A DNA stretch of 64,000 nt, taken from assembly GCA_009838635.1 (NCBI GenBank), contig VXRE01000049.1, forward strand, positions 13,349 through 77,348, given 5' to 3'. Each line of letters opens with the position of its first letter. The first letter of the stretch is position 1. Source of the stretch: Acidimicrobiia bacterium (GTDB taxonomy: Bacteria; Actinomycetota; Acidimicrobiia; Spongiisociales; Spongiisociaceae). Under the pieces are notes generated by a model, which saw only the letters and a program-made list of their open reading frames with translations, did not search any database and was not told where the DNA came from. This document shows, piece by piece, positions 9,671-46,749 of the stretch. A program made the translations under genes and the position numbers.

Positions 9671-10999
9671 ATGACTAGCTCGCCTGATCTCACCCACCTC
9701 CTGCCGCACTTCACCAGCGCCAAGTACTGGCGCTCCGGCGCCGCCCCCGTGTTCGCCCGTGGTGAGGGCTGTTACCTCTGGGACCACGCCGGTAACAGGT
9801 ACCTGGACACGCTGGCCGGGCTGTTCGTGGTCCAGATCGGGCACGGTCGGACCGACATCGCGAAGGCGATGAGCGAGCAGGCCGAGCAGCTTGCTTTCTT
9901 CCCCTCCTGGTCGGCCACCACACCCGTCACGCTCGAGGCCGCCTCGTTGATCACCGACCTGGCGCCCGGTGATCTGGACGCGGTGTTCTTCGTCAGTTCG
10001 GGCTCCGAAGCCAACGAATCGGCCATCAAGTTCGCCCGCCAGTACCACCAGGCCGATGGACAGCCCACCAAGACGGGCGTCATCTCGCGGATCGACTCCT
10101 ATCACGGCACCAGCATGGGCGCGCTCTCGGCCACCGGCCTGAAGCCCGTCAGGGAGCCCTTCCTGCCTCTCCTGCCGGGCTTCACCCACGTGCCCAACAC
10201 CCACGGTTTCTCGGACGGGGTGGAAGCCGCCCGGGTGGTCGAGGAGGAGATCCTGCGCCGGGGAGCGGACCAGGTGGGCATGGTCATAGCCGAACCGGTC
10301 CAGAACGGAGGCGGAGCCCTGGTGCCTCCGTCCGGTTACTGGAGGGAGTTGCGTCGCATCTGCGACCGGTACGGCGTACTCCTCGTCGCTGACGAGGTGA
10401 TATGCGGGTTCGGACGGCTCGGCGCCTGGTTCGGATCGGAGGTCGTGGACGCAGCGCCCGACATGATCACCTTCGCCAAGGGCGCCACCTCGGGCTACGG
10501 GCCGATCGGCGGCGTGCTGGTGCGCCGGCCGGTGGTCGAGAAGGTCCTGGACTCAGAGGCCGGGACCTTCCTGCACGGCGCGACCTGGGGCGGTCATCCG
10601 GTGGTGATGGCTTCCGCCGTCGCGAACATCACCGCCATGCGAGAAGAGCGGGTGATCGAGAACGTCGCCCGCAATGCGCCGCTGTTCGAAGCGCGCCTCC
10701 ACGACCTCGCGGAGGCCCACGACCAGGTGTTGGATGTCCGGGGTACCGGTTACCTTTACGCGCTTGCTCTCGGGCATAGCCGCAAGGAAGGACGGGATTA
10801 CTCCGAAGAGGAGACCAAGCGGGCCGTGTACGAGGCTCTCCCCGAGTTGGCCCTTGAAGCCGGCCTGCACCTCCGGGTCGACGACCGGGGCGGCGCCAAG
10901 ATCATGCTCTCTCCCCCGCTGGTGGCCACCACCACCGAGCTGGACGAGATGATCGCGGGCGTGTCGCAGGTCCTGGTCCAGCTCGCCGCCACCATCTAA
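9671..10999 (+). CDS. Class III (omega) aminotransferase, PLP-dependent
   Basis: It carries typical AT-III motifs: FFVSSGSEANESAIKFAR, AEPVQNGGGA and LVADEVICGFGRLG. Length is 442 aa. Confidence 0.8.
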   Translation: MTSSPDLTHLLPHFTSAKYWRSGAAPVFARGEGCYLWDHAGNRYLDTLAGLFVVQIGHGRTDIAKAMSEQAEQLAFFPSWSATTPVTLEAASLITDLAPGDLDAVFFVSSGSEANESAIKFARQYHQADGQPTKTGVISRIDSYHGTSMGALSATGLKPVREPFLPLLPGFTHVPNTHGFSDGVEAARVVEEEILRRGADQVGMVIAEPVQNGGGALVPPSGYWRELRRICDRYGVLLVADEVICGFGRLGAWFGSEVVDAAPDMITFAKGATSGYGPIGGVLVRRPVVEKVLDSEAGTFLHGATWGGHPVVMASAVANITAMREERVIENVARNAPLFEARLHDLAEAHDQVLDVRGTGYLYALALGHSRKEGRDYSEEETKRAVYEALPELALEAGLHLRVDDRGGAKIMLSPPLVATTTELDEMIAGVSQVLVQLAATI

Positions 11000-11029
11000 C
11001 GAGTCCGTAAACGTCCGTGGAGGGATCGC

Positions 11030-12115
11030 GTGAGGATCGGGATACCCACCGAGACCAAGCCGGATGAGCACCGCGTAGCCCTCACGCCGGCCGGCGTGGA
11101 AGCCCTGACCGGGTCGGGTCATCAAGTGCTGGTGCAGGAGGGCGCCGGCCTGGGGTCGTACATCTCCGATGACGATTACGCCGGAGCGGGCGCCTCCATC
11201 GTCGACGCCGCTACCGATGTCTGGTACGGGGCCGAGTTGATCGTGAAGGTCAAGGAGCCGCAGGAGGAGGAACTCGCTTACCTGTCCAACGACCAGATCC
11301 TGTTCACCTTCCTCCACCTGGCCGCCTATCCGGAGGTCGCCTCGGCGCTGTGTGGGGCCCACACCACCTCGGTGGCGTACGAGACGGTGAAGCTCCCCGG
11401 CGGCGTCCTGCCCCTGTTGGCGCCGATGTCCCAGATAGCAGGGCGGATGGCCACCCAGGTCGGGGCCCGCTTTCTGGAGAGATCGGGTGGAGGCCGAGGC
11501 GTGCTCCTGAGCGGTGTTCCGGGTGTCGAGCCCGCCGAGGTGGTGGTGATCGGCGGCGGCATGGCCGGCGCCAACGCTCTCCGGGTGGCGGTGGGAATGG
11601 GCGCCAGAGTCAAGGTCTTCGACCTGAACCCGGCCCGCCTGCGGGAGATCGACGATCTGTATCGAGGCGCGGTGACAACCCTGATCGCCAACCGAGCCGA
11701 CGTCCGGGCAGCGGTGCTCGAGGCCGACCTGGTCATCGGCGCGGTCCTGTTACCCGGCGCCCGAGCTCCCCGCGTGCTGACCGCCGAGGACGTGCGGGAC
11801 ATGAAGCCGGGCTCCGTGGTGGTCGACATCGCCATCGACCAGGGGGGCTGCTTCGAGACCTCGCGGGAGACCAGGCACTCCGACCCCACCTACATGATCG
11901 AAGAGGTGGTGCACTACGCGGTCGGTAACATCCCCGGCGCCGTGCCCCGCACCGCCACCTTCGCTCTGGCCGCCTCCACCATTCCCTACGTCCGGTTGCT
12001 GGCCGATCATGGCGTCGACGCCGCCATCGAGCAGCGCCCGGAGCTGGGAGAGGGCCTCAACACCAGGGGCGGCTTCATCACCAACGAGACGGTAAGGGCC
12101 GCGCTCGGTGGGTGA
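11030..12115 (+). CDS. ald: Alanine dehydrogenase
   Basis: The sequence MRIGIPTETKPDEHRVALTP...KVKEP...VVIGGGMAGANA...DIAIDQGGC is a strong Ald signature. A GTG start is preceded by GGAGGG. Confidence 0.85.
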   Translation: MRIGIPTETKPDEHRVALTPAGVEALTGSGHQVLVQEGAGLGSYISDDDYAGAGASIVDAATDVWYGAELIVKVKEPQEEELAYLSNDQILFTFLHLAAYPEVASALCGAHTTSVAYETVKLPGGVLPLLAPMSQIAGRMATQVGARFLERSGGGRGVLLSGVPGVEPAEVVVIGGGMAGANALRVAVGMGARVKVFDLNPARLREIDDLYRGAVTTLIANRADVRAAVLEADLVIGAVLLPGARAPRVLTAEDVRDMKPGSVVVDIAIDQGGCFETSRETRHSDPTYMIEEVVHYAVGNIPGAVPRTATFALAASTIPYVRLLADHGVDAAIEQRPELGEGLNTRGGFITNETVRAALGG

Positions 12116-12127
12116 ACACGAGGGCCG

Positions 12128-14611
12128 ATGACGGATCCCGGCCACCCCACGGTCACGCCCGCGCCTGGCGGCCCGTCAGGCGGACCCCTTCCCGACCGGG
12201 CCCAGGTGGTGGTGGTCGGCGGCGGGATCGTCGGGTGCGCGATCGCCTACCACCTGGCCAGGCGGGGCATCACCGATGTGCTACTGCTGGAGCAGAACAC
12301 CCTGACCGGGGGCACCACCTGGCACGCGGCCGGGCTGGTGAGCCAGCTCAAGTCCAGCCACAGCCTTACGAGACTGGCGACGTATACCGCCCGCCTCTTC
12401 GAAGAATTGGAGGATGAGACCGGCCAGTCCACCGGCTACCGCACCACCGGATCTATCTCGGTGGCCTCCGACGAGGAGCGGTGGGAGGAGATCCTGCGCG
12501 GCATGTCGATGGCCAGGACGGCCGGTGTGGAAATGGAGGTCATCGACCCCGAGCGGGCGCGCGAGATGTGGCCGCTGCTCCGCATCGACGACCTGGTGGG
12601 TACGGTCTACATACCCGGGGACGGCCAGACGAGCCCGGTCGACACCACGATGGCCCTCGCCAAGGGCGCCAGGGACCGGGGCGTCACGATCCGCGAGGGA
12701 GTCGCGGTGGAGCGGGTGCGGGTGGAGAACGAGGCGGCGGTCGGGGTCGAGACCGAGGCAGGCTACGTGGAGGCGGAGACCGTAGTCCTGGCCTGCGGTA
12801 TCTGGACCCGCCAACTGGCGGCATCCGCGGGAGTGAACGTGCCGCTCCATCCGTGCGAGCACTTCTACGTGGTGACCGAACCGCTCGACGGGATGCTGCC
12901 GGGGATGCCGACCCTGCGCGATCCGACCAACTACACCTACTTCAAGGAGGAGACCGGCAAGCTGATGGCCGGATTCTTCGAGCCGAGGGCCAAGACCTGG
13001 AAGTACGAGGTTCCCAGGGACTTCGCCTTCGGCACCCTCGGCGAGGACTGGGACCACGTCGGGCCGATCTTCGAGAGGTCCATCCACCGCATCCCCGCCC
13101 TCGCCGAGTGCGGCATCCAGCTCTTCCTCAACGGACCCGAGGCCTTCACGCCCGACGGCGTCTACTACCTGGGTGAGTCCCCGGAGGTTGACGGCCTCTA
13201 TGTGGCCGCCGGCTTCAACTCGGTCGGCATCCAGTCGGCGGGAGGGGCGGGCTGGGTGCTGGCGGACTGGATAGCAGAGCAGCGCCCGCCGATGGACCTG
13301 TCGGCGGTCGACCTCCGCCGGGCCTTCCCCTTCCAGGGGGAGAAGACCTACCTGGAGGACCGCATCTCGGAGAGCCTCGGGCTGCTGTACGCCATGCACT
13401 GGCCGTTCCGCCAGTTCGAGTCGGCCCGCGACGTGTTCCGGTCCGTGCTCCATGACCGCTTGGGCGACCTGGGAGCGGTGTTCGGCGAGGTGGCGGGCTG
13501 GGAGCGGCCCAACTGGTTCGCAACGGGGGACATGGAACGCGAGTACAGGTACTCCTACGGCAAGCAGAACTGGTATCCGGCCTCCGCCGCCGAGTGCGAG
13601 GCCACGCGCCGGAGGGTGGCGCTGTACGACCAGTCCTCCTTTGTCAAGTTCCAGGTACGGGGACCCGATGCGCTGGCCGTCCTGAACCACATCGGCGGGG
13701 CCGATGTGGATACGCCGATCGGCAAGGTGGTCTACACGCAGTGGCTCAACGACCGGGGCGGCATCGAGGCCGACCTGACCGTCACCCGCACCGGCCCCGA
13801 GGACTTCATGGTGGTGACGGCAGCGGCAGCGGCCAACCGTGATTACCACACCCTGCGCCGAGCCCTGCGGGGCCACGACGCCGAACTCACCGACATCACG
13901 ATGGAGCTCCCCACCATCGGCGTGATGGGCCCGCGATCCCGCGCCCTGCTGAGCGCTCTGACCGACACCCCCCTCGACAACGCATCGTTCCCGTTCGGAT
14001 GGTCACGGGAGATGACCGTGGCCGGCATACCGGTACGGGCTCTGCGGGTCAGCTACGTGGGCGAGCTGGGATGGGAACTGTACGTCGCCAGCGAGACGGC
14101 CGTAGATCTGTTCGACGCGGTGATGGAGGAGGGAAGGTCACACGGAATCCATCCCGCCGGATACCACGCCATGAACACCCTGCGGCTCGAAGCCGGTTAC
14201 CGGCACTGGGGTCACGACATCACCGACGAGGACACGCCGCTGGAAGCCGGGCTGGGCTTCGCGGTGGCATGGGACAAGGAAGGCGGCTTCCTGGGACGTC
14301 GAGCCCTCCTGGCCCAGCGCGCCGCAACCCCGCTGCCGAAACGGCTGGTCCAGTTCAAGCTCGACGACCCGGAGGCCATCGCGTACCACGACGAGCCGAT
14401 CCGCCGCGACGGCCGACTGGTCGGCCGCACCACGTCCGGAATGTACGGCCACACCTTCGGCGCCTGCCTGGCCATGGGCTACGTACTCCACGAGGAGGGC
14501 GTGACCCCGGAGTGGATCGAGTCGGGAACATGGGACATCGAGCTGGCCGGAGTCCGCATCCCCGTCGCCGCGCAACTCCGACCCTTCTACACCGCCCAGA
14601 CCCGAACCTGA
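12128..14611 (+). CDS. Second dimethylglycine/sarcosine dehydrogenase family protein (DAO + GcvT-like), paralogue of 5513-7939
   Basis: It has VVVGGGIVGCAIAYHL...GGTTWHAAGL, is 827 aa, and has the same architecture as the 5513 gene. Confidence 0.8.
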   Translation: MTDPGHPTVTPAPGGPSGGPLPDRAQVVVVGGGIVGCAIAYHLARRGITDVLLLEQNTLTGGTTWHAAGLVSQLKSSHSLTRLATYTARLFEELEDETGQSTGYRTTGSISVASDEERWEEILRGMSMARTAGVEMEVIDPERAREMWPLLRIDDLVGTVYIPGDGQTSPVDTTMALAKGARDRGVTIREGVAVERVRVENEAAVGVETEAGYVEAETVVLACGIWTRQLAASAGVNVPLHPCEHFYVVTEPLDGMLPGMPTLRDPTNYTYFKEETGKLMAGFFEPRAKTWKYEVPRDFAFGTLGEDWDHVGPIFERSIHRIPALAECGIQLFLNGPEAFTPDGVYYLGESPEVDGLYVAAGFNSVGIQSAGGAGWVLADWIAEQRPPMDLSAVDLRRAFPFQGEKTYLEDRISESLGLLYAMHWPFRQFESARDVFRSVLHDRLGDLGAVFGEVAGWERPNWFATGDMEREYRYSYGKQNWYPASAAECEATRRRVALYDQSSFVKFQVRGPDALAVLNHIGGADVDTPIGKVVYTQWLNDRGGIEADLTVTRTGPEDFMVVTAAAAANRDYHTLRRALRGHDAELTDITMELPTIGVMGPRSRALLSALTDTPLDNASFPFGWSREMTVAGIPVRALRVSYVGELGWELYVASETAVDLFDAVMEEGRSHGIHPAGYHAMNTLRLEAGYRHWGHDITDEDTPLEAGLGFAVAWDKEGGFLGRRALLAQRAATPLPKRLVQFKLDDPEAIAYHDEPIRRDGRLVGRTTSGMYGHTFGACLAMGYVLHEEGVTPEWIESGTWDIELAGVRIPVAAQLRPFYTAQTRT

Positions 14612-32595: not shown

Positions 32596-33414
32596 GTGGC
32601 TAGACCGAAGATCGAGATAGCACACGTCGACAAGTTCTATCGAAAGACCGGTACGCCCCCGAAGCGCCTGAGCCGGCGGGGACGGACGCACGGGACGGTT
32701 CAGGCCCTGCGCGACGCCAGCCTGACCGTGGCCGAGGGCGAGTTCGTCAGCCTCATCGGTCCGAGCGGATGCGGCAAGACCACCCTGCTAAAGGTCTTGG
32801 ACGGCTTGGTCCCTTACGATTCCGGTGAGGTCAGAGTCTCGGGCAAGCCCGTTACCGGGCCCGGCCGGGATCGCGCCTTCGTGTTCCAGCAGTTCGGGCT
32901 CTTTCCGTGGCGAACCGTGACGGGGAACGTGACGCTCCCCTTGGAGGCTGCCGGGAAGTCAAGGGCGGAGCGCGAGGACATTGCTTGGAAGTACATAAGG
33001 ATGGTGGGACTGGAGGGCTTCGCCAACCACCATCCCCATGAACTGTCCGGCGGTATGCAGCAGCGGGTGGGAATCGCTCGCGCCCTGGCGGTAGATCCCG
33101 AGATACTGCTCATGGACGAGCCGTTCGGCGCTCTCGACGCGCAGACCCGCGAGTTGATGCAGATAGAACTGCTCGGGATCTGGGAGAAGACCCGCAAGAC
33201 GGTGGTGTTCGTCACCCATAGCGTGGACGAGGCGATCTTCCTGTCCGGGCGGATAGCAGTCATGTCGGCGCACCCGGGCACGGTGAGCGAGGTCATAGAC
33301 GTCCCCTTCCCGTACCCGAGGACCGAGGGGGACCTGAAGCGGGATCCCTTGTTCGCCGACATGCGGCACGACATCTGGAACAAGCTACTGCCGCACAAGA
33401 CCGCCACCGTCTGA
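32596..33414 (+). CDS. ABC transporter ATP-binding protein, NitT/TauT (sulfonate/nitrate/taurine) family
   Basis: Walker [10 protein letters not shown], the signature [15 protein letters not shown], and Walker [12 protein letters not shown] are present. Length is 272 aa. Confidence 0.85.
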
Positions 33415-36842: not shown

Positions 36843-37418
36843 TCAGCCGGGCTGCCGGACTCCGTGGGGGACCGTGTTCCGGATGACGGTTCCGTTGTGG
36901 GTGACGACCGAGTAGACCGGCACCGCCCTCCGGGAGAAGGCGCCGAGTGGGCAGCGGGCGTCGCCCCAGTCGATCATGGCCAGTACGGAGTCGGCCGCCG
37001 ACGGGCTGTCCACGTGGACATCGAACACCAGCCACTGGATGTGGACCGGTTTGTCCTCGAAGCCGTGCTCCCCGCGCAGGTCCAGGTGGGTGGTGATGTT
37101 CATTCGGAGCCCCTCCACCTCGCAACCCGCGAACGGGGCGCCCTTGGCGTACCAGCCGAGCATGCAGAAGGCGATCCCGCTGAGGAAGTACCGGATCGGG
37201 CTCGGGCCCCGCTCGTGTCCGCCCCGCTCGATGGCCTCGTCCCCGAAGAAGGTGAACTCGCGGTCATACTGGACGAACGAGGACCGGACGCTCACGTCTT
37301 CGATGGTCTCTGCCGACACGTAGGGGTGCACCAGCCCGGCGGCGTGGTTGCCGCCCAGTATCTCCACCAAGCCCAGGTAGTTGGACTCCAGCTTGCCGTG
37401 ATCGACGATCCCCATCAT
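36843..37418 (-). CDS. OsmC/Ohr-family-like protein
   Basis: GPSPIRYFLSGIAFCMLGW and a later ..DARCPLG.. resemble the two conserved Cys regions of OsmC-like proteins. Length is 191 aa. Confidence 0.45.
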   Translation of the reverse strand: MMGIVDHGKLESNYLGLVEILGGNHAAGLVHPYVSAETIEDVSVRSSFVQYDREFTFFGDEAIERGGHERGPSPIRYFLSGIAFCMLGWYAKGAPFAGCEVEGLRMNITTHLDLRGEHGFEDKPVHIQWLVFDVHVDSPSAADSVLAMIDWGDARCPLGAFSRRAVPVYSVVTHNGTVIRNTVPHGVRQPG

Positions 37419-38464
37419 TTCCTCCTGTCTGCTTGCGGCACGCCCGACCGGGCGATCTCCTCCCGCACGATCGGTAGTACGGACCCGCTTATCTCCTCCA
37501 GGGTCTCCTCGAAGCGATTGAACTGGTTACGCACGTCGAACGTGAAGTGGTCGAACCCTCGGTTGTAGTACTCAAGGACGCCGTCCGCCACATCGCGGGC
37601 GTCGCCCACCACCACCACGCCCCGGATGTCCTCGAGCGTCCGGAAGGCGCCCCCGGGCGGGGTCACCCAGTTCCTCTTGCCGTCTCGCGACATCCGCTCC
37701 ACGCTCACCCGGCTGCGGGCCCGGTCCCGGTCACCGTCGAGAATCGTGCGGGGTGTGGCTGAGAGGAAGAGACGGTCGATGCTGCCCAGCAACTCCCGCA
37801 TGTAGGAGAGCCGGGCGTCGACGGTGGTGAGCGGGACGGTGCCTGCCAGCCAGCCGTCTGCATGTCGGGCGGCTATCCGGGCTGCCCGCCGGGAAGGACC
37901 ACCGTAGAGGATGGGTAGCGGATGCTCGAGTTTCGGTTCGAGGGAGGCGTGGTGGACCCGGAAGATCTCCCCGTCGAAGGTAACGCCGTTGTCGACCCAC
38001 AGCCGGCGCACGATCTCGATCATCTCCAGGACCGCCTGGTGTTTGCGGTCCGGGTCGATCCCGGCTGCCCTCAACTCACCGCCGTGACCGGCCCCGAAGC
38101 CGGCGATGACGCGCCCGCCGGTGAGGTAGGAGAGGGTGAGGTACTGCTGGGCGACCCTGATCGGGTGGCGCACCGGGATCATCACCCCCGTCCCGATGAC
38201 AAGCCGTTCCACCAGCGTTCCCAGCCCGACCAGGGTGGTGAACGGCTCCAGGAAGGTCATGTCGGTGTGTTCCTCGTGGCTGTGCGGGTGCCAGAGGAGG
38301 TGATCGCGGGCCCACACCGCGTCGAAGCCCAGGTCCTCTATGAGCTTGATTCCCTCGATGAGGCGGGTCCGGGAAGCGTGGGGACCGAAGTGGGGCAGCA
38401 ACACCCCGAAAGTCATCCCCGTCCGGGGCCTCCTAAGGGGATGGCCGTCCAGGTCCCGGCTCAT
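37415..38464 (-). CDS. LLM-class (luciferase-like) flavin/F420-dependent oxidoreductase (copy 1)
   Basis: MTFGVLLPHFGPHAS...GFDAVWARDH is the typical LLM N-terminus. The probable real start is the internal Met at about 38416. Confidence 0.7.
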   Translation of the reverse strand: MSRDLDGHPLRRPRTGMTFGVLLPHFGPHASRTRLIEGIKLIEDLGFDAVWARDHLLWHPHSHEEHTDMTFLEPFTTLVGLGTLVERLVIGTGVMIPVRHPIRVAQQYLTLSYLTGGRVIAGFGAGHGGELRAAGIDPDRKHQAVLEMIEIVRRLWVDNGVTFDGEIFRVHHASLEPKLEHPLPILYGGPSRRAARIAARHADGWLAGTVPLTTVDARLSYMRELLGSIDRLFLSATPRTILDGDRDRARSRVSVERMSRDGKRNWVTPPGGAFRTLEDIRGVVVVGDARDVADGVLEYYNRGFDHFTFDVRNQFNRFEETLEEISGSVLPIVREEIARSGVPQADRRK

Positions 38465-38575: not shown

Positions 38576-39592
38576 TCAGAATGCCTTAGGTCGCCAGGAG
38601 GACAACCGGGACTCGACCGCCTTGGTGATGGTGATCATGATCCCTCCGATCACCATCAGTAGCAGGGCCATGGCGAACAGCCGGTCGGTGTGGTAGGCAG
38701 CCCGGGCGTCCCGGATCACGAAGCCCAGTCCGGGCACCCCGATCAGGAACTCGGCCACGATCACCGCGATCAGACCACGTTGCACGGCGATGCGGAGACC
38801 GGTGGCCAGGAACGGGACGGCGCCGGGCAGGAGGATCTTCAGGAACATGTGCCGGTCGCGTGCGACGAGCAGCCCCACCGTGCCGAACAGCAGTACCAAA
38901 CCCTGAATGAGGCTCAGCCATCCCGCAGCCGTACCCAGGAAGGTGACGACGAGGAGGACGGCCCCGACCCATTCCTCGACCACGCCCTTGCCCGACCTCA
39001 GGTTGAAGGCATAGGAGATCTCGTTGTACTCCTTCATCAACTCGTGCACCCCCGCCGCGGTGGAGAAGGCGATCAGGACCGAGCAGGCCACCACCACGCT
39101 GGCGATCACGAACCTGGAGAAGGGAATCTCGACCCCGGCCGCCAGGAAGTTGTCTGCGATGCCGAACCAGATGACCATGATCGGGACGAAGGCCACACGT
39201 GGGACCGAATAGACGGCTGCCAGGTAGGGATCGAGCGCCACCCGGAACACCCGGTACCGGCCGATCAGGAAACCAAGGGTCACCCCCACGATGAACGAGA
39301 GCACCATGCCGATCAGCAGGGCTCCCATGGACTTCATGAGCAGTACCGGGAAGCTCCCCTCGATGTAGGGAAGCACCTGCTCGGCGCCGAGGAGCCTCCA
39401 CAACTCGGCGAGCGTCAGGCTCGGCTGCGAGTACCACTCGGGCTTCCGGGCGCCGAACACCTCCCAGAGCCCCAGGAAGACCACGACTCCGGTCAGTTGA
39501 AGGATCCTCACCCGGCTGATCCGGAACGGGCTACGGGTCTCCCCGCCAGTCTGGACGGCGCCGTCTCCGCTGTCTGTCGAAGTCTCGGCCAT
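38576..39592 (-). CDS. ABC transporter permease, NitT/TauT family
   Basis: It has 6 TM helices and the EAA-like loop. The start is at MAETSTD, since the ORF-track upstream extension is out-of-frame read-through. Its ATG overlaps the stop of the upstream permease (ATGA). Confidence 0.8.
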   Translation of the reverse strand: MAETSTDSGDGAVQTGGETRSPFRISRVRILQLTGVVVFLGLWEVFGARKPEWYSQPSLTLAELWRLLGAEQVLPYIEGSFPVLLMKSMGALLIGMVLSFIVGVTLGFLIGRYRVFRVALDPYLAAVYSVPRVAFVPIMVIWFGIADNFLAAGVEIPFSRFVIASVVVACSVLIAFSTAAGVHELMKEYNEISYAFNLRSGKGVVEEWVGAVLLVVTFLGTAAGWLSLIQGLVLLFGTVGLLVARDRHMFLKILLPGAVPFLATGLRIAVQRGLIAVIVAEFLIGVPGLGFVIRDARAAYHTDRLFAMALLLMVIGGIMITITKAVESRLSSWRPKAF

Positions 39593-40437
39593 CACGTGGC
39601 CTCCATGGTGCTCCACGGGGTCACCCAACGCTCGAGCAGCCGCAGGCCGAGGTTGATCGACACTCCCACCGCCATGACGGTCAGCATGCCCGCGAAGGTC
39701 GTGTGCATCCGGTATTCGTTGGTCTGGTTGGCTATCAGCCCCCCTATCCCGTTGGCCTCGAGGAAGAAGCCGGCCAGCACCACGCCGACCATCCCGTGCA
39801 GGAGGCCCAGGCGGAGCCCGGTGATGATGTAGGGCGCGGTAGCCGGCGCGATGATCTTGGTGAGCATCATGCCCTCCGGGATCGAGTATGACCTGGCCAC
39901 GTCCACGTACTCGGCGTTCGTCACCTTGATGCCGTCGCGAACGGTGAAGAAGACCTCGAAGAAGCTGAAGAGGATCACTATCAGCACCTTGGCGTTGAAC
40001 TGGAAGCCCAGCCAGAGGGCGATGATCGGCAGCAGGGCGATCTTGGGCGTCATGAACACACCCACGAACACCGGCTCGACGGTGTTGTCGATCGAGCGGT
40101 ACCGTCCCATGACGAAGCCCAGAATGATTCCGGCCACGGCCGAAATCGCCAGGGCGGTGAACATGATGGCCAGGTCGGACCGCCACGCCTTCCACAGGTC
40201 GCCGCTGACGGTCATCTCCCATAGCGCATCCCAGGTCCTGGTCACCGAGGCGAAGGTGACGGTGCTGGTGCGCCTGCCGAAGACCTCCCAGCCGGTGAGG
40301 ATGACGGCGAGAGTCAGGATCCGGATCAGCCAACTCGATTGGAACACCGCCAGGAAGCGCAGCAGGGGGCGGCTCCACCCGGCAGCCAGGATCGCGGAAC
40401 CCTGCTCCCGGTGGGTCAGCGTGTCGACTGCGGCCAT
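39592..40437 (-). CDS. ABC transporter permease, NitT/TauT family (second permease)
   Basis: It is hydrophobic with 6 TM. The start is at MAAVDTLTHREQ, with GGGGAG 9 nt upstream. Confidence 0.8.
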   Translation of the reverse strand: MAAVDTLTHREQGSAILAAGWSRPLLRFLAVFQSSWLIRILTLAVILTGWEVFGRRTSTVTFASVTRTWDALWEMTVSGDLWKAWRSDLAIMFTALAISAVAGIILGFVMGRYRSIDNTVEPVFVGVFMTPKIALLPIIALWLGFQFNAKVLIVILFSFFEVFFTVRDGIKVTNAEYVDVARSYSIPEGMMLTKIIAPATAPYIITGLRLGLLHGMVGVVLAGFFLEANGIGGLIANQTNEYRMHTTFAGMLTVMAVGVSINLGLRLLERWVTPWSTMEAT

Positions 40438-40636
40438 ATCCAATAGCTCCCCATCTGATGACCCCGGGAGTGGCACCGGCCAGCCCGGCAACCGGTAACA
40501 GGCTGCCTTCAGGACGGCTCGAACCCTTACGGAAACCTTAGTCCCACGCTCCGCAGCCGTATGGACACCTTGTGGGCCTGCCGCATCCCGGAGGAAACCG
40601 GTAGGCCCACAGGTTCATTTCGTCGTGTCGTCTGCT

Positions 40637-42778
40637 CTATCGCCGCCCGAGAATGTCCAGTGCCTGGTCTTGGAACTCGAAGGTGACCAGTTCCTCGACC
40701 GTGTAGGCCCGGTCGACCGCCTCGAACGCGAGCGATGTGTCCAGGGTGGTCTGCATCAGGTCGTAGTCGAGGGAACCGTTGACCGGCCACATGTCCAACT
40801 CATGGATGAGCCCGTCGTAATCGATCGAGGCAGCTTCCGCGGTAAGGCGCTCGTTCACCGACATGGCGTACTCGATCCACTGCTGCTTGTCCTCCTGCGC
40901 CCAACGCGCCGACTTCAACGACGCGATGTTGAACGCCAGCGCCATGTCAGGATTGGCCTCCACCCAGGCCCTCTCGGCATACCACACCGAAGAGATCTGG
41001 GGGGCCGCCTCCCAACCCGCACAAAGCATGTTGTAAGCGCCCACGCCCTCATTCAGAGTGAGCTGGGTGAGACGCCAGGTAGCCGAGATGCCGCCGACAA
41101 CCTGACCCGACGAGATCGCCTGGGTCGCCTCACCCGTATGGGCCAGCCGCACCAGCTGCACATCGTCCACGGTCATGCCCACATCCGCCAGACACTTCTG
41201 GAGAGTCTGGCCCGTGATCTGGTTAAGGCTCTGAGTCGCCGCCACGGGCTGGCCCCGCAACTCCTCCATCGAGCTGATCGGCGCCTTGGCCGCGATGATG
41301 AACGAGTTCTTCTGATCGTCACCACCGAAGGCGACGAAGTCCGAACCCGCCGAGACGGCATTCGCCATACCCGCCAGGGAGAGCTGGCCCACGTCCACCT
41401 CACCGGCGATCGTGGCCGCCACCAGCGGATCGGAGTCCAGCAGGCGGAACTCCACATCGAGACCGAAGTCATCCCGCAAGAAGTCCATCGTCCGGAACGC
41501 ACCCGTCAACGAAGCGTTCGGGAAGCCTGAACTACCCACCACCACCGACTGGCCCTCGATCCGGGACCGGATGTCGGCGATCACCGCATCCGGATCCATC
41601 ATCGCATCGTCTGCCATGGAGATGTCGGGATTGCGCTCGGCTGTCCCGAGGATCTCAAGTGCCTTGTCCTGGAACTCGAAGGTGACCAGTTCCTCCACGG
41701 TGTACTCACGGTCGACCGCCTCGAACTCGAAGGAGGTATCCAACGTGGTCTGCAAGAGGTCGTATTCGAGGGAGCCATTGACCGGCCACATGTCCAGCTC
41801 GCCCAAGAGGCTGTCGTAGTCGAGCGACGCAGCCTCCGGGGTAAGGCGCTCGTTCACCGACATGGCGTACTCGATCCAGCGCTGCTTGTCCTCCTGCGCC
41901 CAACGCGCCGACTTCAACGACGCGATGTTGAACGCCAGCGCCATGTCAGGATTGGCCTCCACCCAGGCCCTCTCGGCATACCACACCGAAGAGATCTGGG
42001 GGGCCGCCTCCCAACCCGCACAAAGCATGTTGTAAGCGCCCACGCCCTCATTCAGAGTGAGCTGGGTGAGACGCCAGGTAGCCGAGATGCCGCCGACAAC
42101 CTGACCCGACGAGATCGCCTGGGTCGCCTCACCCGTATGGGCCAGCCGCACCAGCTGCACATCGTCCACGGTCATGCCCACATCCGCCAGACACTTCTGG
42201 AGAGTCTGGCCCGTGATCTGGTTAAGGCTCTGAGTCGCCGCCACGGGCTGGCCCCGCAACTCCTCCATCGAGCTGATCGGCGCCTTGGCCGCGATGATGA
42301 ACGAGTTCTTCTGATCGTCACCACCGAAGGCGACGAAGTCCGAACCCGCCGAGACGGCATTCGCCATACCCGCCAGGGAGAGCTGGCCCACGTCCACCTC
42401 ACCGGCGATCGTGGCCGCCACCAGCGGATCGGAGTCCAGCAGGCGGAACTCCACATCGAGACCGAAGTCATCCCGCAAGAAGTCCATCGTCCGGAACGCA
42501 CCCGTCAACGAAGCGTTCGGGAAGCCCGAGCTACCCACCACCACCGACTGGCCCTCGATCCGGGACCGGATGTCGGCGATCGTCTCGGCCTCATCCATCA
42601 TCCCATCGTCGGCCGGAGCCGTCTCGGTGGGCGTGTCGTCGGCCGGGGCCTGGGTGGCCTGGGTGGTGGCCTGCGTTGCGGGGGCTTGGGTCGTGGCGGC
42701 GGGTTCCTCATCCGCGCCGCAAGCCGCCACAAGCAAGGCAAAGCCCAACAGCAGTGCCATTAGCCGCATGTGTCTCAT
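40637..42778 (-). CDS. ABC transporter substrate-binding lipoprotein (NMT1/SsuA/TauA-like) containing two tandem substrate-binding domains
   Basis: The signal peptide has a lipobox (LLVAACG) and a TTQAP-rich linker. Two SBP modules of about 330 aa follow: the first 250 residues are identical between copies and the last 80 are about 75% identical. Confidence 0.75.
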   Translation of the reverse strand: MRHMRLMALLLGFALLVAACGADEEPAATTQAPATQATTQATQAPADDTPTETAPADDGMMDEAETIADIRSRIEGQSVVVGSSGFPNASLTGAFRTMDFLRDDFGLDVEFRLLDSDPLVAATIAGEVDVGQLSLAGMANAVSAGSDFVAFGGDDQKNSFIIAAKAPISSMEELRGQPVAATQSLNQITGQTLQKCLADVGMTVDDVQLVRLAHTGEATQAISSGQVVGGISATWRLTQLTLNEGVGAYNMLCAGWEAAPQISSVWYAERAWVEANPDMALAFNIASLKSARWAQEDKQRWIEYAMSVNERLTPEAASLDYDSLLGELDMWPVNGSLEYDLLQTTLDTSFEFEAVDREYTVEELVTFEFQDKALEILGTAERNPDISMADDAMMDPDAVIADIRSRIEGQSVVVGSSGFPNASLTGAFRTMDFLRDDFGLDVEFRLLDSDPLVAATIAGEVDVGQLSLAGMANAVSAGSDFVAFGGDDQKNSFIIAAKAPISSMEELRGQPVAATQSLNQITGQTLQKCLADVGMTVDDVQLVRLAHTGEATQAISSGQVVGGISATWRLTQLTLNEGVGAYNMLCAGWEAAPQISSVWYAERAWVEANPDMALAFNIASLKSARWAQEDKQQWIEYAMSVNERLTAEAASIDYDGLIHELDMWPVNGSLDYDLMQTTLDTSLAFEAVDRAYTVEELVTFEFQDQALDILGRR
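40640..42640. repeat. Direct tandem duplication with a 999-bp period (two units) inside the SBP gene. About 750 bp of each unit is >99% identical at the nucleotide level, and the 3'-proximal 240 bp (gene orientation) is diverged.
   Basis: Read directly: 40861-41620 equals 41861-42620 except for about 4 substitutions. Sub-ORFs in the track are duplicated accordingly (for example 41173-41502 versus 42172-42501). Confidence 0.85.
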
Positions 42779-43082: not shown

Positions 43083-44051
43083 TCACGATGCCGAGAACGA
43101 TGGGAGGACCTCGGCCCCCAGTTGCTCGATGCCTTCCTCGAAGGCGTCCATTCGCTCCCGTAGATCGAGTACCACCTCATCCACCCCGCGGGCTTCGAGC
43201 TGGTGGAGTTCCTCGATCACATCATCAGCCGTGCCTGCGATCAGCGCTCCCCGCAGGTCCGCCGCCGTGTCGAACGGTCCGTCCGGACGCCAGGCCGGCT
43301 TCCTGCGGGACTCCTCGAGGATTCCCTCTACGTTGACCTTGGCCAATGCGCGCTCCCGGCTCCGGTCGAGGGAGACCAGCGGGACGATGGCGATCCGCAT
43401 CGTCTTGCCGGCCGCGCCGGCCTCCTCCTCGAGCCTTGCCGACAGGCGGTCGAACACCCTTAGCGGGCAGCGGCCGGGGAACCAACCGTCAGTGAAGCGG
43501 ACCGCTCGACGGATGGCCGCCAGGCTGGAACCGCAGTAGAGAAGCGTCAGATCCCGGGGAGGGGCCGGATCGAGGGTCAGGTCGTCGAAGCTGATCAGGG
43601 TGCCGCGATGGGAGGCGCGGGGATGCGCCGTGGCACGTAGGACGGTCACCATCTCCTCGAAGAGGGCAATGCGGTCGTCGACCGAGAGCCCTGCCAGGCG
43701 GAAGGCGTTCGGCTGACCCCCCAAGCCCACACCGAGCGCCATCCGGCCGCGGGCGAGGTGGGCGAGGGATCCCACCAGCTGGGCGAGCACCACGGGCGGG
43801 CGAATCGGGGTCAGGGTCGCCATGCCCACGGTCAGTTCGGTGGTTGCCGCCACGGCGCTCATGGCGATGAAAGGATCCACGAAGTGGTGGCTGGGGTTCT
43901 CGAACGACACGCCACCCGTGAAGCCCAGCTGGTCCCGGAAGTAGACGCTGGAGAACCCGAGTTCCTGGAGGCGCGGCCCGATCGCGAACACCCGGTCCCA
44001 GGTCGAGTGCGGGCCGAAGTGGGGCACGAGTAGGCCGAAGGAGAGGCTCAT
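43083..44051 (-). CDS. LLM-class flavin/F420-dependent oxidoreductase (copy 2)
   Basis: It begins MSLSFGLLVPHFGPHST, is 322 aa, and has a luciferase-like TIM-barrel profile. Confidence 0.7.
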   Translation of the reverse strand: MSLSFGLLVPHFGPHSTWDRVFAIGPRLQELGFSSVYFRDQLGFTGGVSFENPSHHFVDPFIAMSAVAATTELTVGMATLTPIRPPVVLAQLVGSLAHLARGRMALGVGLGGQPNAFRLAGLSVDDRIALFEEMVTVLRATAHPRASHRGTLISFDDLTLDPAPPRDLTLLYCGSSLAAIRRAVRFTDGWFPGRCPLRVFDRLSARLEEEAGAAGKTMRIAIVPLVSLDRSRERALAKVNVEGILEESRRKPAWRPDGPFDTAADLRGALIAGTADDVIEELHQLEARGVDEVVLDLRERMDAFEEGIEQLGAEVLPSFSAS

Positions 44052-44077: not shown

Positions 44078-45292
44078 GTGTTCATCGGTCCGGTCATCGT
44101 ATACGATCAGCCCGTGCCTGCCGGTGCTGAAGGACCCGTCCGGGTGGCCGTTGTGCAGGCGGCCCCGGTGTTTCTGGATCGGGCCGCGTCCGTGCGCAAG
44201 GCGTGCGGCCTGATCGATGAGGCCGGAGCCGCCGGTGCTCGCCTGGTCGCATTCGGTGAGAGCTTCCTTCCGGGACACCCGATCTGGTTCCACGCCCTGC
44301 CCCCCACGGCCGGCCGTTCGAGGGAACTCGCCACAGCCATGGTGGAGAACGCCCTGACGGTTCCGGGCCCGGAGAGCGATCTGCTGTGCGAGGCCGCCCG
44401 CCGCGCCGGAGCGATGGTCGTGATCGGTCTCGTCGAGCGTCCCGACCCCGGGGTGAGCGTGGTATTCGATAGCCAGATGGTGCTGTCCCCGGATGGTGCG
44501 ATGCTCGGCGTGCGCCGGAAGCTGGTTCCGGCAGTGGGTGAGCGGGTCTTCTTCCACCCGGGCGGCGGGGAATCGATCCGCGTGTTCGACTCGCCGTGGG
44601 GGCCGGTGAGCGTGCTGGCGGGAGGGGAGAACTCCAACCCATTGCTCACCTACGCCATGCGCACTCTGAGCGCCCGGATCCACGTGGCTCTCTGGCCCCC
44701 GCATTTCCACGCTCCCGGCGTGATGCAGAATGTGGTGTCCATAACCGGGCGGGCCGTGGCCTACCAGAACACGGCCCACGTGCTCTCGGTGGCCGCCGCC
44801 TCGGATGCGGAGGCCGTGGAGCGGGTGGCGCCGGACGCCGCGCATCGGGCCAACCTCATGACGATGACCGAGGAGCCCGGCTCGATGATCTACGCGCCGG
44901 GTGGCAGGATCCTGGCCGGTCCCCAGCAGGGCGAGGGAATCCTCTACGCCGACATCGACCCGGACGCCGGAACCTGGGCGCAACTGGTCAACCGCCAGTA
45001 CGACCGACCCGACCTCCTGCGGCTTTCCTGGGGTGGGCAGGAAGGCACCCTTCCGGCGGAACCTGGCGGTCGCGTCGAGGGGGACCCCGAGCAAGACTCC
45101 CCCACGGACGAAGACCTGGCGGCCCGCGCCCGGCTCCTGATCCGGGAGAGGTTCGGCGACGCGCTCGATCCCGACGACTCCGAGGGGCTGGTTCCCTACG
45201 TGGTGCAGATACTGCGCCGGTCCGGAAGGCTGGCCGAGCGCGTCCCGGACTCCACCGATCCGCGGACCGCCCTCTACGCGGGCGAGCGTTGA
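44078..45292 (+). CDS. Nitrilase-superfamily (carbon-nitrogen hydrolase) homologue lacking the catalytic cysteine, with a 100-aa acidic C-terminal extension
   Basis: VRVAVVQAAPVFLD, the Glu motif LVAFGESF, and the Lys motif RRKLVP are present. The Cys motif position reads VLAGGENSNPLL where the neighbouring paralogue has AVCWENYMPLL. Confidence 0.7.
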   Translation: MFIGPVIVYDQPVPAGAEGPVRVAVVQAAPVFLDRAASVRKACGLIDEAGAAGARLVAFGESFLPGHPIWFHALPPTAGRSRELATAMVENALTVPGPESDLLCEAARRAGAMVVIGLVERPDPGVSVVFDSQMVLSPDGAMLGVRRKLVPAVGERVFFHPGGGESIRVFDSPWGPVSVLAGGENSNPLLTYAMRTLSARIHVALWPPHFHAPGVMQNVVSITGRAVAYQNTAHVLSVAAASDAEAVERVAPDAAHRANLMTMTEEPGSMIYAPGGRILAGPQQGEGILYADIDPDAGTWAQLVNRQYDRPDLLRLSWGGQEGTLPAEPGGRVEGDPEQDSPTDEDLAARARLLIRERFGDALDPDDSEGLVPYVVQILRRSGRLAERVPDSTDPRTALYAGER

Positions 45293-46749
45293 GCGATAGC
45301 ATCGCGCTCGCCTCCATCACCGAGGTCGCAAGTCGTATCTCGGCCGGGGAGGTCTCTCCCGTCGATCTGGTCTCCGGAACGCTCGACCGCATCCGGACCC
45401 TGGACCCAGTCCTGCGGGCCTACGTCACCGTGTTCGAAGAGGAAGCGCTGGCCGGTGCCAGGGTCGCCGCGGACGAGATCGCGGGCGGGAACCACCGCGG
45501 GCCGCTGCACGGCATCCCGGTGGCGGTGAAGGACAACGTTGCGGTGGCGGGCCACCCCACGACCAACGGATCGGTGCTCTGGGCGGATCACAAGACCGAC
45601 TTCGATGCGGAGGTCGTCACCCGCCTCCGGCGAGCCGGGGCCATCCTCCTCGGGAAGAACAACATGCACGAGTGGGGAATGGGGGGTACCTGCAAGGACA
45701 TGCACTTCGGCACGGTACGCAACCCCTGGGATCCGGCCCGCATACCGGGCGGCTCGAGCGGAGGCTCCGCCGCCGCCGTGAGCGCCGGGATGGCCTGGGC
45801 CGCGGTCGGCACCGACGGGTGGGGCTCGATCCGGACGCCGGCATCGTATTGCGGTGTGGTCGGACTGATGCCCACCCACGGGCTGGCCAGCCGCTTCGGG
45901 GAGTTGCCTCCCACCAGCTCCTGGCATCACACCATCGGCCCCATCACGAGGACGGTCGGGGATGCCGCAACCCTGCTCGATGTCATGGCCGGACACGATC
46001 CCAAGGACCCGACGTCCATCCATTCCGGCTTCGAGGGTTCCTACCGCGACGGCTTGGCAAGGGGAACGAGTCGCCTGAGGGTGGGCTTGCCCGGTTCCTA
46101 TTTCTTCGACGACGCCCTCGCTGAGGTGGAGGAGATCGTACGTGACGCGGCCCGGGTCCTCGAAGACCTGGGAGCGGAGGTCGAGGAGGTGGACCTGTCG
46201 GCCTTCTACGAGATTCCCCTGGCGCTGGCGGCCGCCCAGCACGAGTCGCAGTCGCTTCTCCTTCCGCACGCCCTCGCCCGTCCGGAAGGCTTCGCCACGC
46301 CCGAAATCCGCTACAGGATCCTGGCCGGGGAGTTTGTGTCGGCAGCCGATCACCGCAGGGGTATGCAGGTGCGCAACGAGATCCGCGCCGGGGTTGCCCG
46401 CGTATTCGAGGCAGTGGATGTGGTGCTCACCCCGTGCAACTCCACCGTGGCCTTCCCCATCGACGCCCGCCATGTCGGGATCGGTGGGGGAAGGTGTGTG
46501 GACCTGGACCAGCCGGGAGCGCAGAGCAGGCTCACCACGCGGCTCACCCTGCCCTGGAACATGGCCGGTGTGCCGGCGGTATCCATCCCGTCCGGCCGCT
46601 ACATCGACGGCCTACCGGTGGGCCTGCAGCTGTCGGCGCGCCGGCTGCACGAGTCCCTGCTGCTCCGTGTCGCGGCAGCCTACGAAGCGGCCGCCGGGGG
46701 TTACCGGCCGCCTCCGCTACCTGGAGTCGGTGAGAACCCGGTTGTCTGA
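45289..46749 (+). CDS. Amidase-signature family amidase (GatA-like Ser-cisSer-Lys hydrolase)
   Basis: GIPVAVKDN and GGSSGGSAAAVSAG motifs are present. A TTG start overlaps the nitrilase-like stop (TTGA), and the ORF-track 5' extension is rejected. Confidence 0.8.
   Translation: MSDSIALASITEVASRISAGEVSPVDLVSGTLDRIRTLDPVLRAYVTVFEEEALAGARVAADEIAGGNHRGPLHGIPVAVKDNVAVAGHPTTNGSVLWADHKTDFDAEVVTRLRRAGAILLGKNNMHEWGMGGTCKDMHFGTVRNPWDPARIPGGSSGGSAAAVSAGMAWAAVGTDGWGSIRTPASYCGVVGLMPTHGLASRFGELPPTSSWHHTIGPITRTVGDAATLLDVMAGHDPKDPTSIHSGFEGSYRDGLARGTSRLRVGLPGSYFFDDALAEVEEIVRDAARVLEDLGAEVEEVDLSAFYEIPLALAAAQHESQSLLLPHALARPEGFATPEIRYRILAGEFVSAADHRRGMQVRNEIRAGVARVFEAVDVVLTPCNSTVAFPIDARHVGIGGGRCVDLDQPGAQSRLTTRLTLPWNMAGVPAVSIPSGRYIDGLPVGLQLSARRLHESLLLRVAAAYEAAAGGYRPPPLPGVGENPVV

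Follow-up and report, generated by a model that had tools for sequence, protein, structure and literature searches.

A 64,000-nucleotide (nt) stretch of DNA from an Acidimicrobiia bacterium (assembly GCA_009838635.1, contig VXRE01000049.1, positions 13,349 to 77,348 of the forward strand; the whole stretch is referred to as the window) carries a gene that very probably encodes a lipid-anchored, two-module binding protein of the NitT/TauT type in sponge-associated Acidimicrobiia (Candidatus (Ca.) Spongiisociaceae or a close relative), whose modules go back to a single old duplication and have since evolved in concert. The chain runs from a predicted lipid anchor through a tether of ~46 amino acids (aa), module 1 and a linker of ~21 aa to module 2. 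The parts of the gene and of its internal repeat are as follows.

40637..42778, minus strand: whole gene, a 713-aa tandem two-module substrate-binding protein, predicted lipoprotein (stop codon at 40637-40639; list of open reading frames (ORFs), Pfam and homologues)
42719..42778, minus strand: predicted signal peptide with lipobox, aa 1-20 (...LLVAAC), read from the sequence; Cys20 is the predicted lipid-anchored residue
42581..42718, minus strand: low-complexity tether rich in T/Q/A/P/D, aa 21-66 (~46 aa), by sequence and by a predicted local distance difference test score (pLDDT) below 50 at residues 15-61 of the full-length model
41645..42580, minus strand: module 1, aa 67-378, a complete type II SsuA/TauA/ThiY-like binding domain (Pfam, NCBIfam, alignment)
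41582..41644, minus strand: inter-module linker, aa 379-399, TAERNPDISMADDAMMDPDAV (21 aa), pLDDT below 50 at residues 380-393 of the full-length model
40646..41581, minus strand: module 2, aa 400-711, followed by RR and the stop codon (alignment, AlphaFold2 model, fold matches)
41881..42526, minus strand: 646-nt perfect stretch, copy 1, in the head of module 1 (gene positions 253-898), read as a homogenised conversion tract
40882..41527, minus strand: 646-nt perfect stretch, copy 2, in the head of module 2 (gene positions 1252-1897)
41645..41880, minus strand: module 1 tail, C-terminal helices, not homogenised, with position-specific states common to module 1 of other genomes
40646..40881, minus strand: module 2 tail, with 84.3% nt and 83.5% aa identity to tail 1, synonymous divergence (dS) 0.55 and a ratio of nonsynonymous to synonymous divergence (dN/dS) of 0.16

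The modules form an in-frame direct repeat (40646-41612 against 41645-42611), and self-comparison at an offset of 999 reproduced the frame-preserving 999-bp period given in a preliminary description of this DNA. The 713-aa ORF which that description read as a lipoprotein with two NitT/TauT-type modules was likewise borne out by the ORF itself, by two stretches matching Pfam NMT1 and by the lipobox. Gene positions 253-898 and 1252-1897 are identical at 646/646 nt, and the module heads agree at 233/233 aa. Over gene positions 198-898, 699 of 701 nt (99.7%) match the counterpart at +999; the identity of more than 99% reported earlier therefore holds, but over about 700 bp rather than about 750 bp. 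In the 3' 236 nt of the modules, 199 nt (84.3%) and 66 of 79 aa (83.5%) are shared, the latter figure replacing an earlier estimate of 75%. Synonymous divergence is 0.015 between the heads and 0.55 between the tails, and the chance of a 646-nt perfect run at the tail-level divergence is roughly 0.85^646, which is negligible. Tandem Repeats Finder, whose longest period is 500 and hence under the 999-nt period here, reported no repeat.

The same pattern recurs among relatives. The modules within each two-module protein are 91-99% identical, compared with protein identities down to 59% between orthologues, which differ by 12-32% at the nt level with dS from 0.7 to more than 1. In most genomes, the modules are identical over 640-1002 bp. 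The longest perfect intragenic runs in eight long-read loci, with periods of 993-1011, and in the window are listed below.

L001: run of 1002 nt, period 1005
L006: run of 970 nt, period 1002
L005: run of 928 nt, period 999
L003: run of 912 nt, period 993
L013: run of 894 nt, period 999
L011: run of 808 nt, period 1011
L007: run of 801 nt, period 1005
L012: run of 642 nt, period 999
Window: run of 646 nt, period 999

In two further long-read lineages, L004 and L010, the modules are only 88-90% identical, with differences along the full length and dS of 0.26-0.40. When all modules were placed in one codon alignment, modules 1 and 2 were sisters in every genome in the tree of the heads (codons 1-235). 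In the tree of the tails (codons 236-313), module 1 of the window grouped with module 1 of L009 and module 2 with module 2 of L009, and the modules of L004 and L010 likewise grouped by position. Between pairs of long-read genomes, 17-287 genome-specific substitutions are common to both modules as against 0-22 that are position-specific (17 and 1 for L005 and L013; 28 and 22 for L004 and L010). The perfect runs end near gene positions 566, 898, 941, 1071, 1100, 1134 and 1191 in different loci. Within-genome similarity, a single origin (see below) and mosaic, lineage-specific tracts were thus all found, which points to concerted evolution by gene conversion. Ongoing conversion, one of two alternatives offered in the preliminary description, was the right one of the pair: the orthologues have diverged and the modules are alike within genomes.

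With regard to the origin of the second module, a neighbour-joining tree, computed without support values, of the two-module proteins and about 30 single-module relatives placed all two-module proteins in one clade. It comprises L001, L003 with P0171, and a Spongiisociaceae group, and its sister is formed by the single-module proteins P0174 and P0176. P0171, listed at 379 aa, was considered as a single-module member inside this clade and was rejected, being a contig-end fragment that starts in the module 1 tail and contains the linker. An alignment of homologues for single versus double architecture, proposed earlier as a check, gave 20 two-module homologues. Homology of the linker's first half extends over the whole clade (TAERNPDIS, VAERNPDIS, VAEYMPDI, TAERMVFAAS, TAERTYFGPS, PATRNVDTG), and the motif T/V/P-A-E/T-R/Y-N/M is common to all two-module proteins. 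This half matches the C-terminal tail of the single-module P0176 (...LLGEAETNPDCS, then stop; EAETNPDCS, then stop), and the second half is homologous to the last ~12 aa of the N-terminal tether (ADDGMMDEAET); the junction thus joins the ancestral C-terminal tail to part of the tether. The tail segment is absent from module 2 in most lineages, where the protein ends in ILGR(R/M/S/V) before the stop codon. Only L001 retains a tail on module 2, of the linker type (PATRNVDTG); this could be an ancestral feature or one that arose in that lineage.

Recent or recurrent independent duplications, or collapse followed by re-duplication, would make the copies identical by youth instead of by conversion. 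The repeats of L001 and L006, whose perfect match spans 970-1002 nt out of a period of 1002-1005 nt, look as a fresh duplication would, the linker-type tail on the second module of L001 fits the same idea, collapse to a single module does happen (L015, below), and independent duplication remains a formal alternative for tandem duplicates, as for fla in PMC6053082. Nevertheless, such a history would need at least ten independent in-frame duplications with the same breakpoints, and the linker is homologous in all lineages. A collapsed gene of the L015 kind, with the head of module 1 and the end of module 2, has lost the linker, and re-duplication cannot rebuild it; cycles of collapse and re-duplication are therefore excluded for the lineages ending in ILGR(R/M/S/V). 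In addition, the modules of L004 and L010 are old by their dS, the tails cluster by position across genomes, and the identity within the gene is a mosaic whose tract ends vary among lineages. Young copies are thus a very unlikely explanation, and the sequences indicate one ancient duplication, probably followed by recurrent intragenic gene conversion. Since the duplication predates lineages separated by dS of ~1 or more, it is not the recent event that the preliminary description had proposed as one alternative.

The reality of the second module was also weighed. A search of 5.8 billion proteins returned the 20 two-module homologues (701-745 aa, 59-99% identity) from independent assemblies. 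Their contigs include a circular one of 3.38 Mb at 266x (Ca. Spongiisocius sp.), a circular one of 4.02 Mb at 46x and one of 3.28 Mb, and two modules are present in the chromosome-level records OZ253564.1, OZ246890.1 and OY760694.1. The species representatives include chromosome-level records of metagenome-assembled genomes, 4.1-5.1 Mb in size and classified as Ca. Spongiisociaceae or Acidimicrobiia. It could be argued that the second module is spurious, or that two strain variants were stitched together in an organism with one module only. Short-read scaffolding does fail at the tandem repeat: in L016 (7100-7330), a scaffold gap of 100 N directly follows the ...EILG of the first module. Some apparent single-module entries sit on contigs of 1-2 kb and seem to be collapsed or truncated genes, among them P0173 (1.8-kb contig), which resembles a collapsed copy of an L011-type gene, and the closest relatives of the window (L017, L018, L019 and L020) are short-read assemblies. 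Against this, the junction of tail 1, linker and head is conserved in all two-module assemblies, including the circular and chromosome-level ones, the two differing tails of the window each have positional orthologues elsewhere, and the separate assembly L018 yielded an identical gene. The identical gene is on record in sample SAMN12347689 (assembly ERZ23491885). An artefact is accordingly extremely unlikely, and the assembly expansion raised earlier as an alternative fails because circular and chromosome-level relatives of megabase scale carry both modules.

Several points nevertheless weigh against the reading of one old duplication under concerted evolution. The long-read label of the relatives was deduced from contig size, circularity flags and chromosome-level status, not from metadata. 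The short-read origin of the closest relatives extends to the species of the window itself, for which a long-read assembly was sought and both entries (P0004 and P0006) proved to be short-read scaffolds. When the path through a de Bruijn graph passes the same repeat node twice, identical copies result by construction, so part of the 646-nt identity may be made by the assembler. A patch that is truly A/B could, after bubble popping, come out as A/A (window) or B/B (L017). The perfect identity of the modules in the window is hence plausible yet unverified, and the case for concerted evolution is carried by the long-read relatives. Gene conversion and unequal sister-chromatid exchange (three copies reduced to two) are indistinguishable from sequence alone. 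The full-length AlphaFold2 model, built on 14 sequences, is poor (pLDDT 54) and gives nothing on inter-module contacts. The ligand, the stoichiometry and any benefit of two modules are matters of inference.

Comparison with the near-identical strain L017 gives a closer view of the heads. Over 4273 nt of aligned flanking sequence, the window and L017 are 99.95% identical. Within the gene, exactly 40 differences are found, namely 20 at gene positions 618-777 and the same 20 at +999, in the following patches.

42002..42161, minus strand: ~160-nt patch, module 1 copy (gene positions 618-777), with 20 of the 40 differences from L017
41003..41162, minus strand: ~160-nt patch, module 2 copy (gene positions 1617-1776), with the same 20 differences

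In both of its modules, the window shows the module 1 state of L009 at most of these sites, and L017 shows the module 2 state of L009 in both at nearly all of them. At face value, the same patch was converted in opposite directions in the two strains; popping of bubbles in short-read assembly would look alike. The two strains also differ in permease 1 (below), where an 89-nt stretch (39831-39919) is missing from L017, whose permease is split into ORFs of 204 and 66 aa. The independent contig L018 ends exactly at 39919, and no obvious repeat is visible in the sequence of 39831-39919. Either a break in the assembly or a genuine indel could account for this gap.

A natural collapse from two modules to one is seen at L015 (6001-7092), a single-module gene in the chromosome-level record OZ219922.1 (1.65 Mb, taken to be long-read). 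At the 13 sites that separate modules 1 and 2 of its closest relative, L007, it has the module 1 state at 12/12 patch sites and the module 2 state at the last, which is the product expected of a crossover between the modules. A 13-aa in-frame deletion has removed ELRGQPVAATQSLN, part of the TQSLNQITGQT region conserved in the family, and the gene may be decaying.

The diverged tail had been described earlier as the sole target of diversification, in a C-terminal lobe shaping specificity. All 15 aa differences between the modules of the window lie in the C-terminal helices and intervening loops (model residues 248-328). They are conservative (L/I, E/D, K/Q, L/M, F/L), fall at columns variable in the family (mean entropy 1.72 against 1.15 overall) and spare the conserved WPVNGSLD loop except for one D/E exchange at its last residue (286). 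The dN/dS between the tails of the window is 0.16 (tail-to-tail range 0.16-0.22), compared with 0.03-0.09 for orthologous tails, and the tails are fully homogenised in L001, L005, L006 and L011-L013, in which the architecture is retained. The tail is thus a C-terminal helical segment under purifying selection, not a diversifying specificity lobe.

Subfunctionalisation would hold that conversion is kept out of this part because the modules diverge toward different ligands or roles. It can draw on tail states conserved by position across several genomes (SLDYDSLLGEL..DLLQTT in module 1, IDYDGLIHEL..DLMQTT in module 2) and on the tail-to-tail dN/dS being above that of orthologous tails. However, these ratios are far under 1, the exchanges are of the conservative kind just described, the model shows helical C-terminal packing rather than a lobe, and homogenisation of the tails in several lineages has cost none of them the architecture. 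Family conservation, used as a proxy for the location of the pocket, puts the presumed pocket motifs (GSS..N, TQSLNQITGQT) in the identical heads. Subfunctionalisation is therefore unlikely, and the identical heads together with the conservative tail differences argue against distinct specificities of the two modules. The raised ratio and the positional states leave room for a mild positional constraint, such as packing of tail 1 against the linker.

The assignment of the protein rests on family profiles, fold and genomic linkage, all of which place it as an NMT1/SsuA/TauA-like type II binding protein of a NitT/TauT importer of the ATP-binding cassette (ABC) class. Pfam PF09084 (NMT1) was matched in two stretches at 82.7 bits (cut-off 20.5), and PF12974 (Phosphonate-bd) in both modules at 37.4 bits (cut-off 27). 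TIGR01728 (SsuA_fam) reached 93.6 bits summed over the two modules, under its cut-off of 163.5, and SaoX scored 37 against a cut-off of 300; the ligand is therefore not assignable, and the protein, falling short of the subfamily cut-off, should not be called SsuA. An AlphaFold2 model of a single module (aa 386-713, built on 73 sequences) reached pLDDT 96.5. Only this model was used in the fold search, the full-length model having been discarded for that purpose and for inter-module geometry. Foldseek matched it to 3QSL, 4NMY, 6SSY, 2X26, 3KSX and 3IX1 with a probability of 1.00 and template modelling (TM) scores of 0.69-0.77; the matches are SsuA, TauA, ThiY, Thi5 and a thiamin-binding protein, with 12-19% sequence identity. 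A sequence search of the PDB gave 3UIF (E = 1e-4) as its sole match, from which no ligand is transferable. The N-terminus MRHMRLMALLLGFALLVAAC, followed by G, holds the lipobox (read from the sequence), and A19 and C20 are invariant in an alignment of 14 homologues; signal peptide, lipobox and invariant Cys together mark a predicted lipoprotein. None of 73 family members departs from two cysteines (C144 and C201, numbered within the module), which could form a disulfide in this extracytoplasmic domain.

The fusion arose once, by an in-frame tandem duplication with a breakpoint near the ancestral stop codon. The ~1-kb modules have since evolved in concert, one being repeatedly overwritten by the other through non-reciprocal homologous recombination, perhaps with occasional unequal exchange. 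Conversion tracts begin near the 5' edge of the homology and end at different points in different lineages; that of the window appears to cover the first ~700 nt of each module. The last 236 nt escaped, and purifying selection acts on the old differences by position that they retain. Direct repeats that are perfect over ~1 kb tend to be lost through RecA-dependent deletion, and L015 has indeed collapsed to one module. Two modules nevertheless persist across saturated synonymous divergence, from which selection for both is inferred. Since recombination holds the two modules alike, what is probably gained is not a broader specificity but twice as many sites for one ligand close to the translocator; by analogy with GlnPQ (below), two like sites on one anchor would probably raise the capture rate or avidity. 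Single-module relatives such as L015 also appear to have two permease-sized ORFs downstream, so a heterodimeric permease does not explain the tandem.

A further idea is that the modules work as a functional pair, for example by hand-over or cooperativity between identical sites at a heterodimeric permease, and that easy switching by recombination between one, two and three modules provides reversible, heritable dosage control of uptake capacity in the sponge host. If true, this would be an organisation and regulation of an importer not described for free binding lipoproteins. The idea as a whole is rather improbable.

Tandem binding domains are known from GlnPQ of Lactococcus lactis and other Gram-positive bacteria, in which two complete type II binding domains per chain are likewise held at the membrane beside an ABC translocator, an arrangement thought to speed ligand delivery to the translocator (Open Biol 2021, PMC8025302). 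The GlnPQ linker has 14 aa (about 21 aa here), and the domains are fused to the transmembrane domain, whereas the present protein is a separate predicted lipoprotein with its own signal peptide, lipobox and stop. The substrate-binding domains (SBDs) also differ: SBD1 and SBD2 of GlnPQ differ in specificity and affinity, whereas the first 233 aa of the modules here are identical, and the fold family is that of amino-acid-binding domains in GlnPQ and SsuA/TauA/NMT1-like here. Concerted evolution of the GlnPQ domains is unmentioned in the passages of PMC8025302 consulted. With SsuA, TauA, ThiY and NMT1/THI5-like proteins (PDB 2X26, 3KSX, 3UIF, 6SSY, 3IX1, 4NMY, 3QSL), the system shares the module fold, TauC/SsuC-like permeases and a TauB-like ATPase; the known members have one module and one permease gene, in contrast to two modules and two different permease genes here.

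Repeats of bacterial surface proteins are one case of intragenic homogenisation. The homogenisation of large repeats within spidroins is another, cited in a study (Commun Biol 2018, PMC6053082) of duplicated prokaryotic genes in which gene conversion has sustained concerted evolution over long periods. As in the cases treated there, the paralogues described here are closer within a genome than orthologues are between genomes, and conversion appears to have maintained this over deep divergence. The units in PMC6053082 are separate genes, whereas here two whole ~1-kb ligand-binding domains, not short structural repeats, lie in one transport ORF, and tract boundaries and a natural 2-to-1 collapse are directly visible. 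The terms 'ABC' and 'substrate-binding' are absent from the main text of PMC6053082. NagB1 and NagB2 (PMC8233162) were considered as a parallel and rejected, as they are two separate genes. A literature search found no paper on a free tandem binding lipoprotein and none on 'Spongiisocius'. A full HMMER scan with one module (1.84 billion cluster representatives at 50% identity) gave 685 relatives; among the best 150 of them, only the cluster of P0020 shows two matched stretches, in agreement with the rarity of tandem SBDs asserted in the preliminary description. A profile search returned about 90 single-module homologues with 45-74% identity. Tandem domains and prokaryotic concerted evolution were each known already; new is their meeting in a free lipoprotein from the SsuA/TauA/NMT1 family, with two whole domains kept identical.

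The locus offers a natural example of a whole ligand-binding domain duplicated in frame and held identical by recombination over a long span instead of diverging. Set against the textbook case of GlnPQ, whose domains specialised, it suggests that selection can act on the number of binding sites instead of on breadth. In uncultivated symbionts, the locus could further serve to measure how long conversion tracts are and how often collapse occurs. In addition, it is an assembly trap: short-read pipelines collapse, break or possibly over-homogenise it, so that metagenome catalogues cannot be relied on for the copy numbers and alleles of such genes.

The neighbouring genes of the window are as follows.

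39592..40491, minus strand: ABC permease 1 (BPD_transp_1; weak TauC/SsuC/SaoP-like matches), by Pfam, NCBIfam and synteny
38576..39592, minus strand: ABC permease 2, 338 aa (BPD_transp_1), whose ATG overlaps the stop codon of permease 1
43083..44051, minus strand: luciferase-like (LLM-class) oxidoreductase directly upstream of the binding-protein gene, by Pfam and conserved synteny
37415..38464, minus strand: second LLM-class oxidoreductase, downstream of the permeases, by Pfam
36843..37418, minus strand: OsmC-like gene at the operon end (best NCBIfam match 'OsmC-related (seleno)protein', under cut-off), with synteny in most relatives
44078..45292, divergent from the binding-protein gene: nitrilase-like gene
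45289..46749, divergent from the binding-protein gene: amidase
32596..33414, plus strand: TauB/NtrCD-type ABC ATPase, candidate energising subunit, unlinked, ~5 kb from the permeases and on the opposite strand

The order is conserved among relatives, with the amidase and nitrilase-like genes followed divergently by an LLM gene, the binding protein, two permeases, an LLM gene and the OsmC-like gene. The binding-protein gene ends ~145 nt before permease 1 (start at 40491), and the same separation is found in all relatives. The NCBIfam matches of the neighbouring genes are all under equivalog cut-offs, so no substrate is assignable from them; with LLM oxidoreductases, a nitrilase-like enzyme and an amidase nearby, the ligand may be a small organic compound of sulfur or nitrogen. 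No riboswitch or other Rfam family was matched in 30-50 kb. Scans for promoters and terminators did no better than chance, or worse, and gave no regulatory clue.

Some minor observations concern these neighbours. The ATPase gene at 32596-33414 is the only one of the TauB/NtrCD type near the locus, and a similarly detached ABC_tran gene is found in L004 and L006. The BPD_transp_1 match of permease 2 (38576-39592) is split in two stretches, which suggests a possible inserted segment of roughly 70 aa. The listed 600-aa ORF at 38576..40378 is merely the open frame upstream of the real permease 2 start. Among the two-module loci, L001 diverges most, and its operon is flanked (997-1959 and 10544-13560) by a gene resembling phage integrases, an HTH_17 gene and pieces of a DNA polymerase III beta subunit, which hints at a mobile or rearranged neighbourhood.

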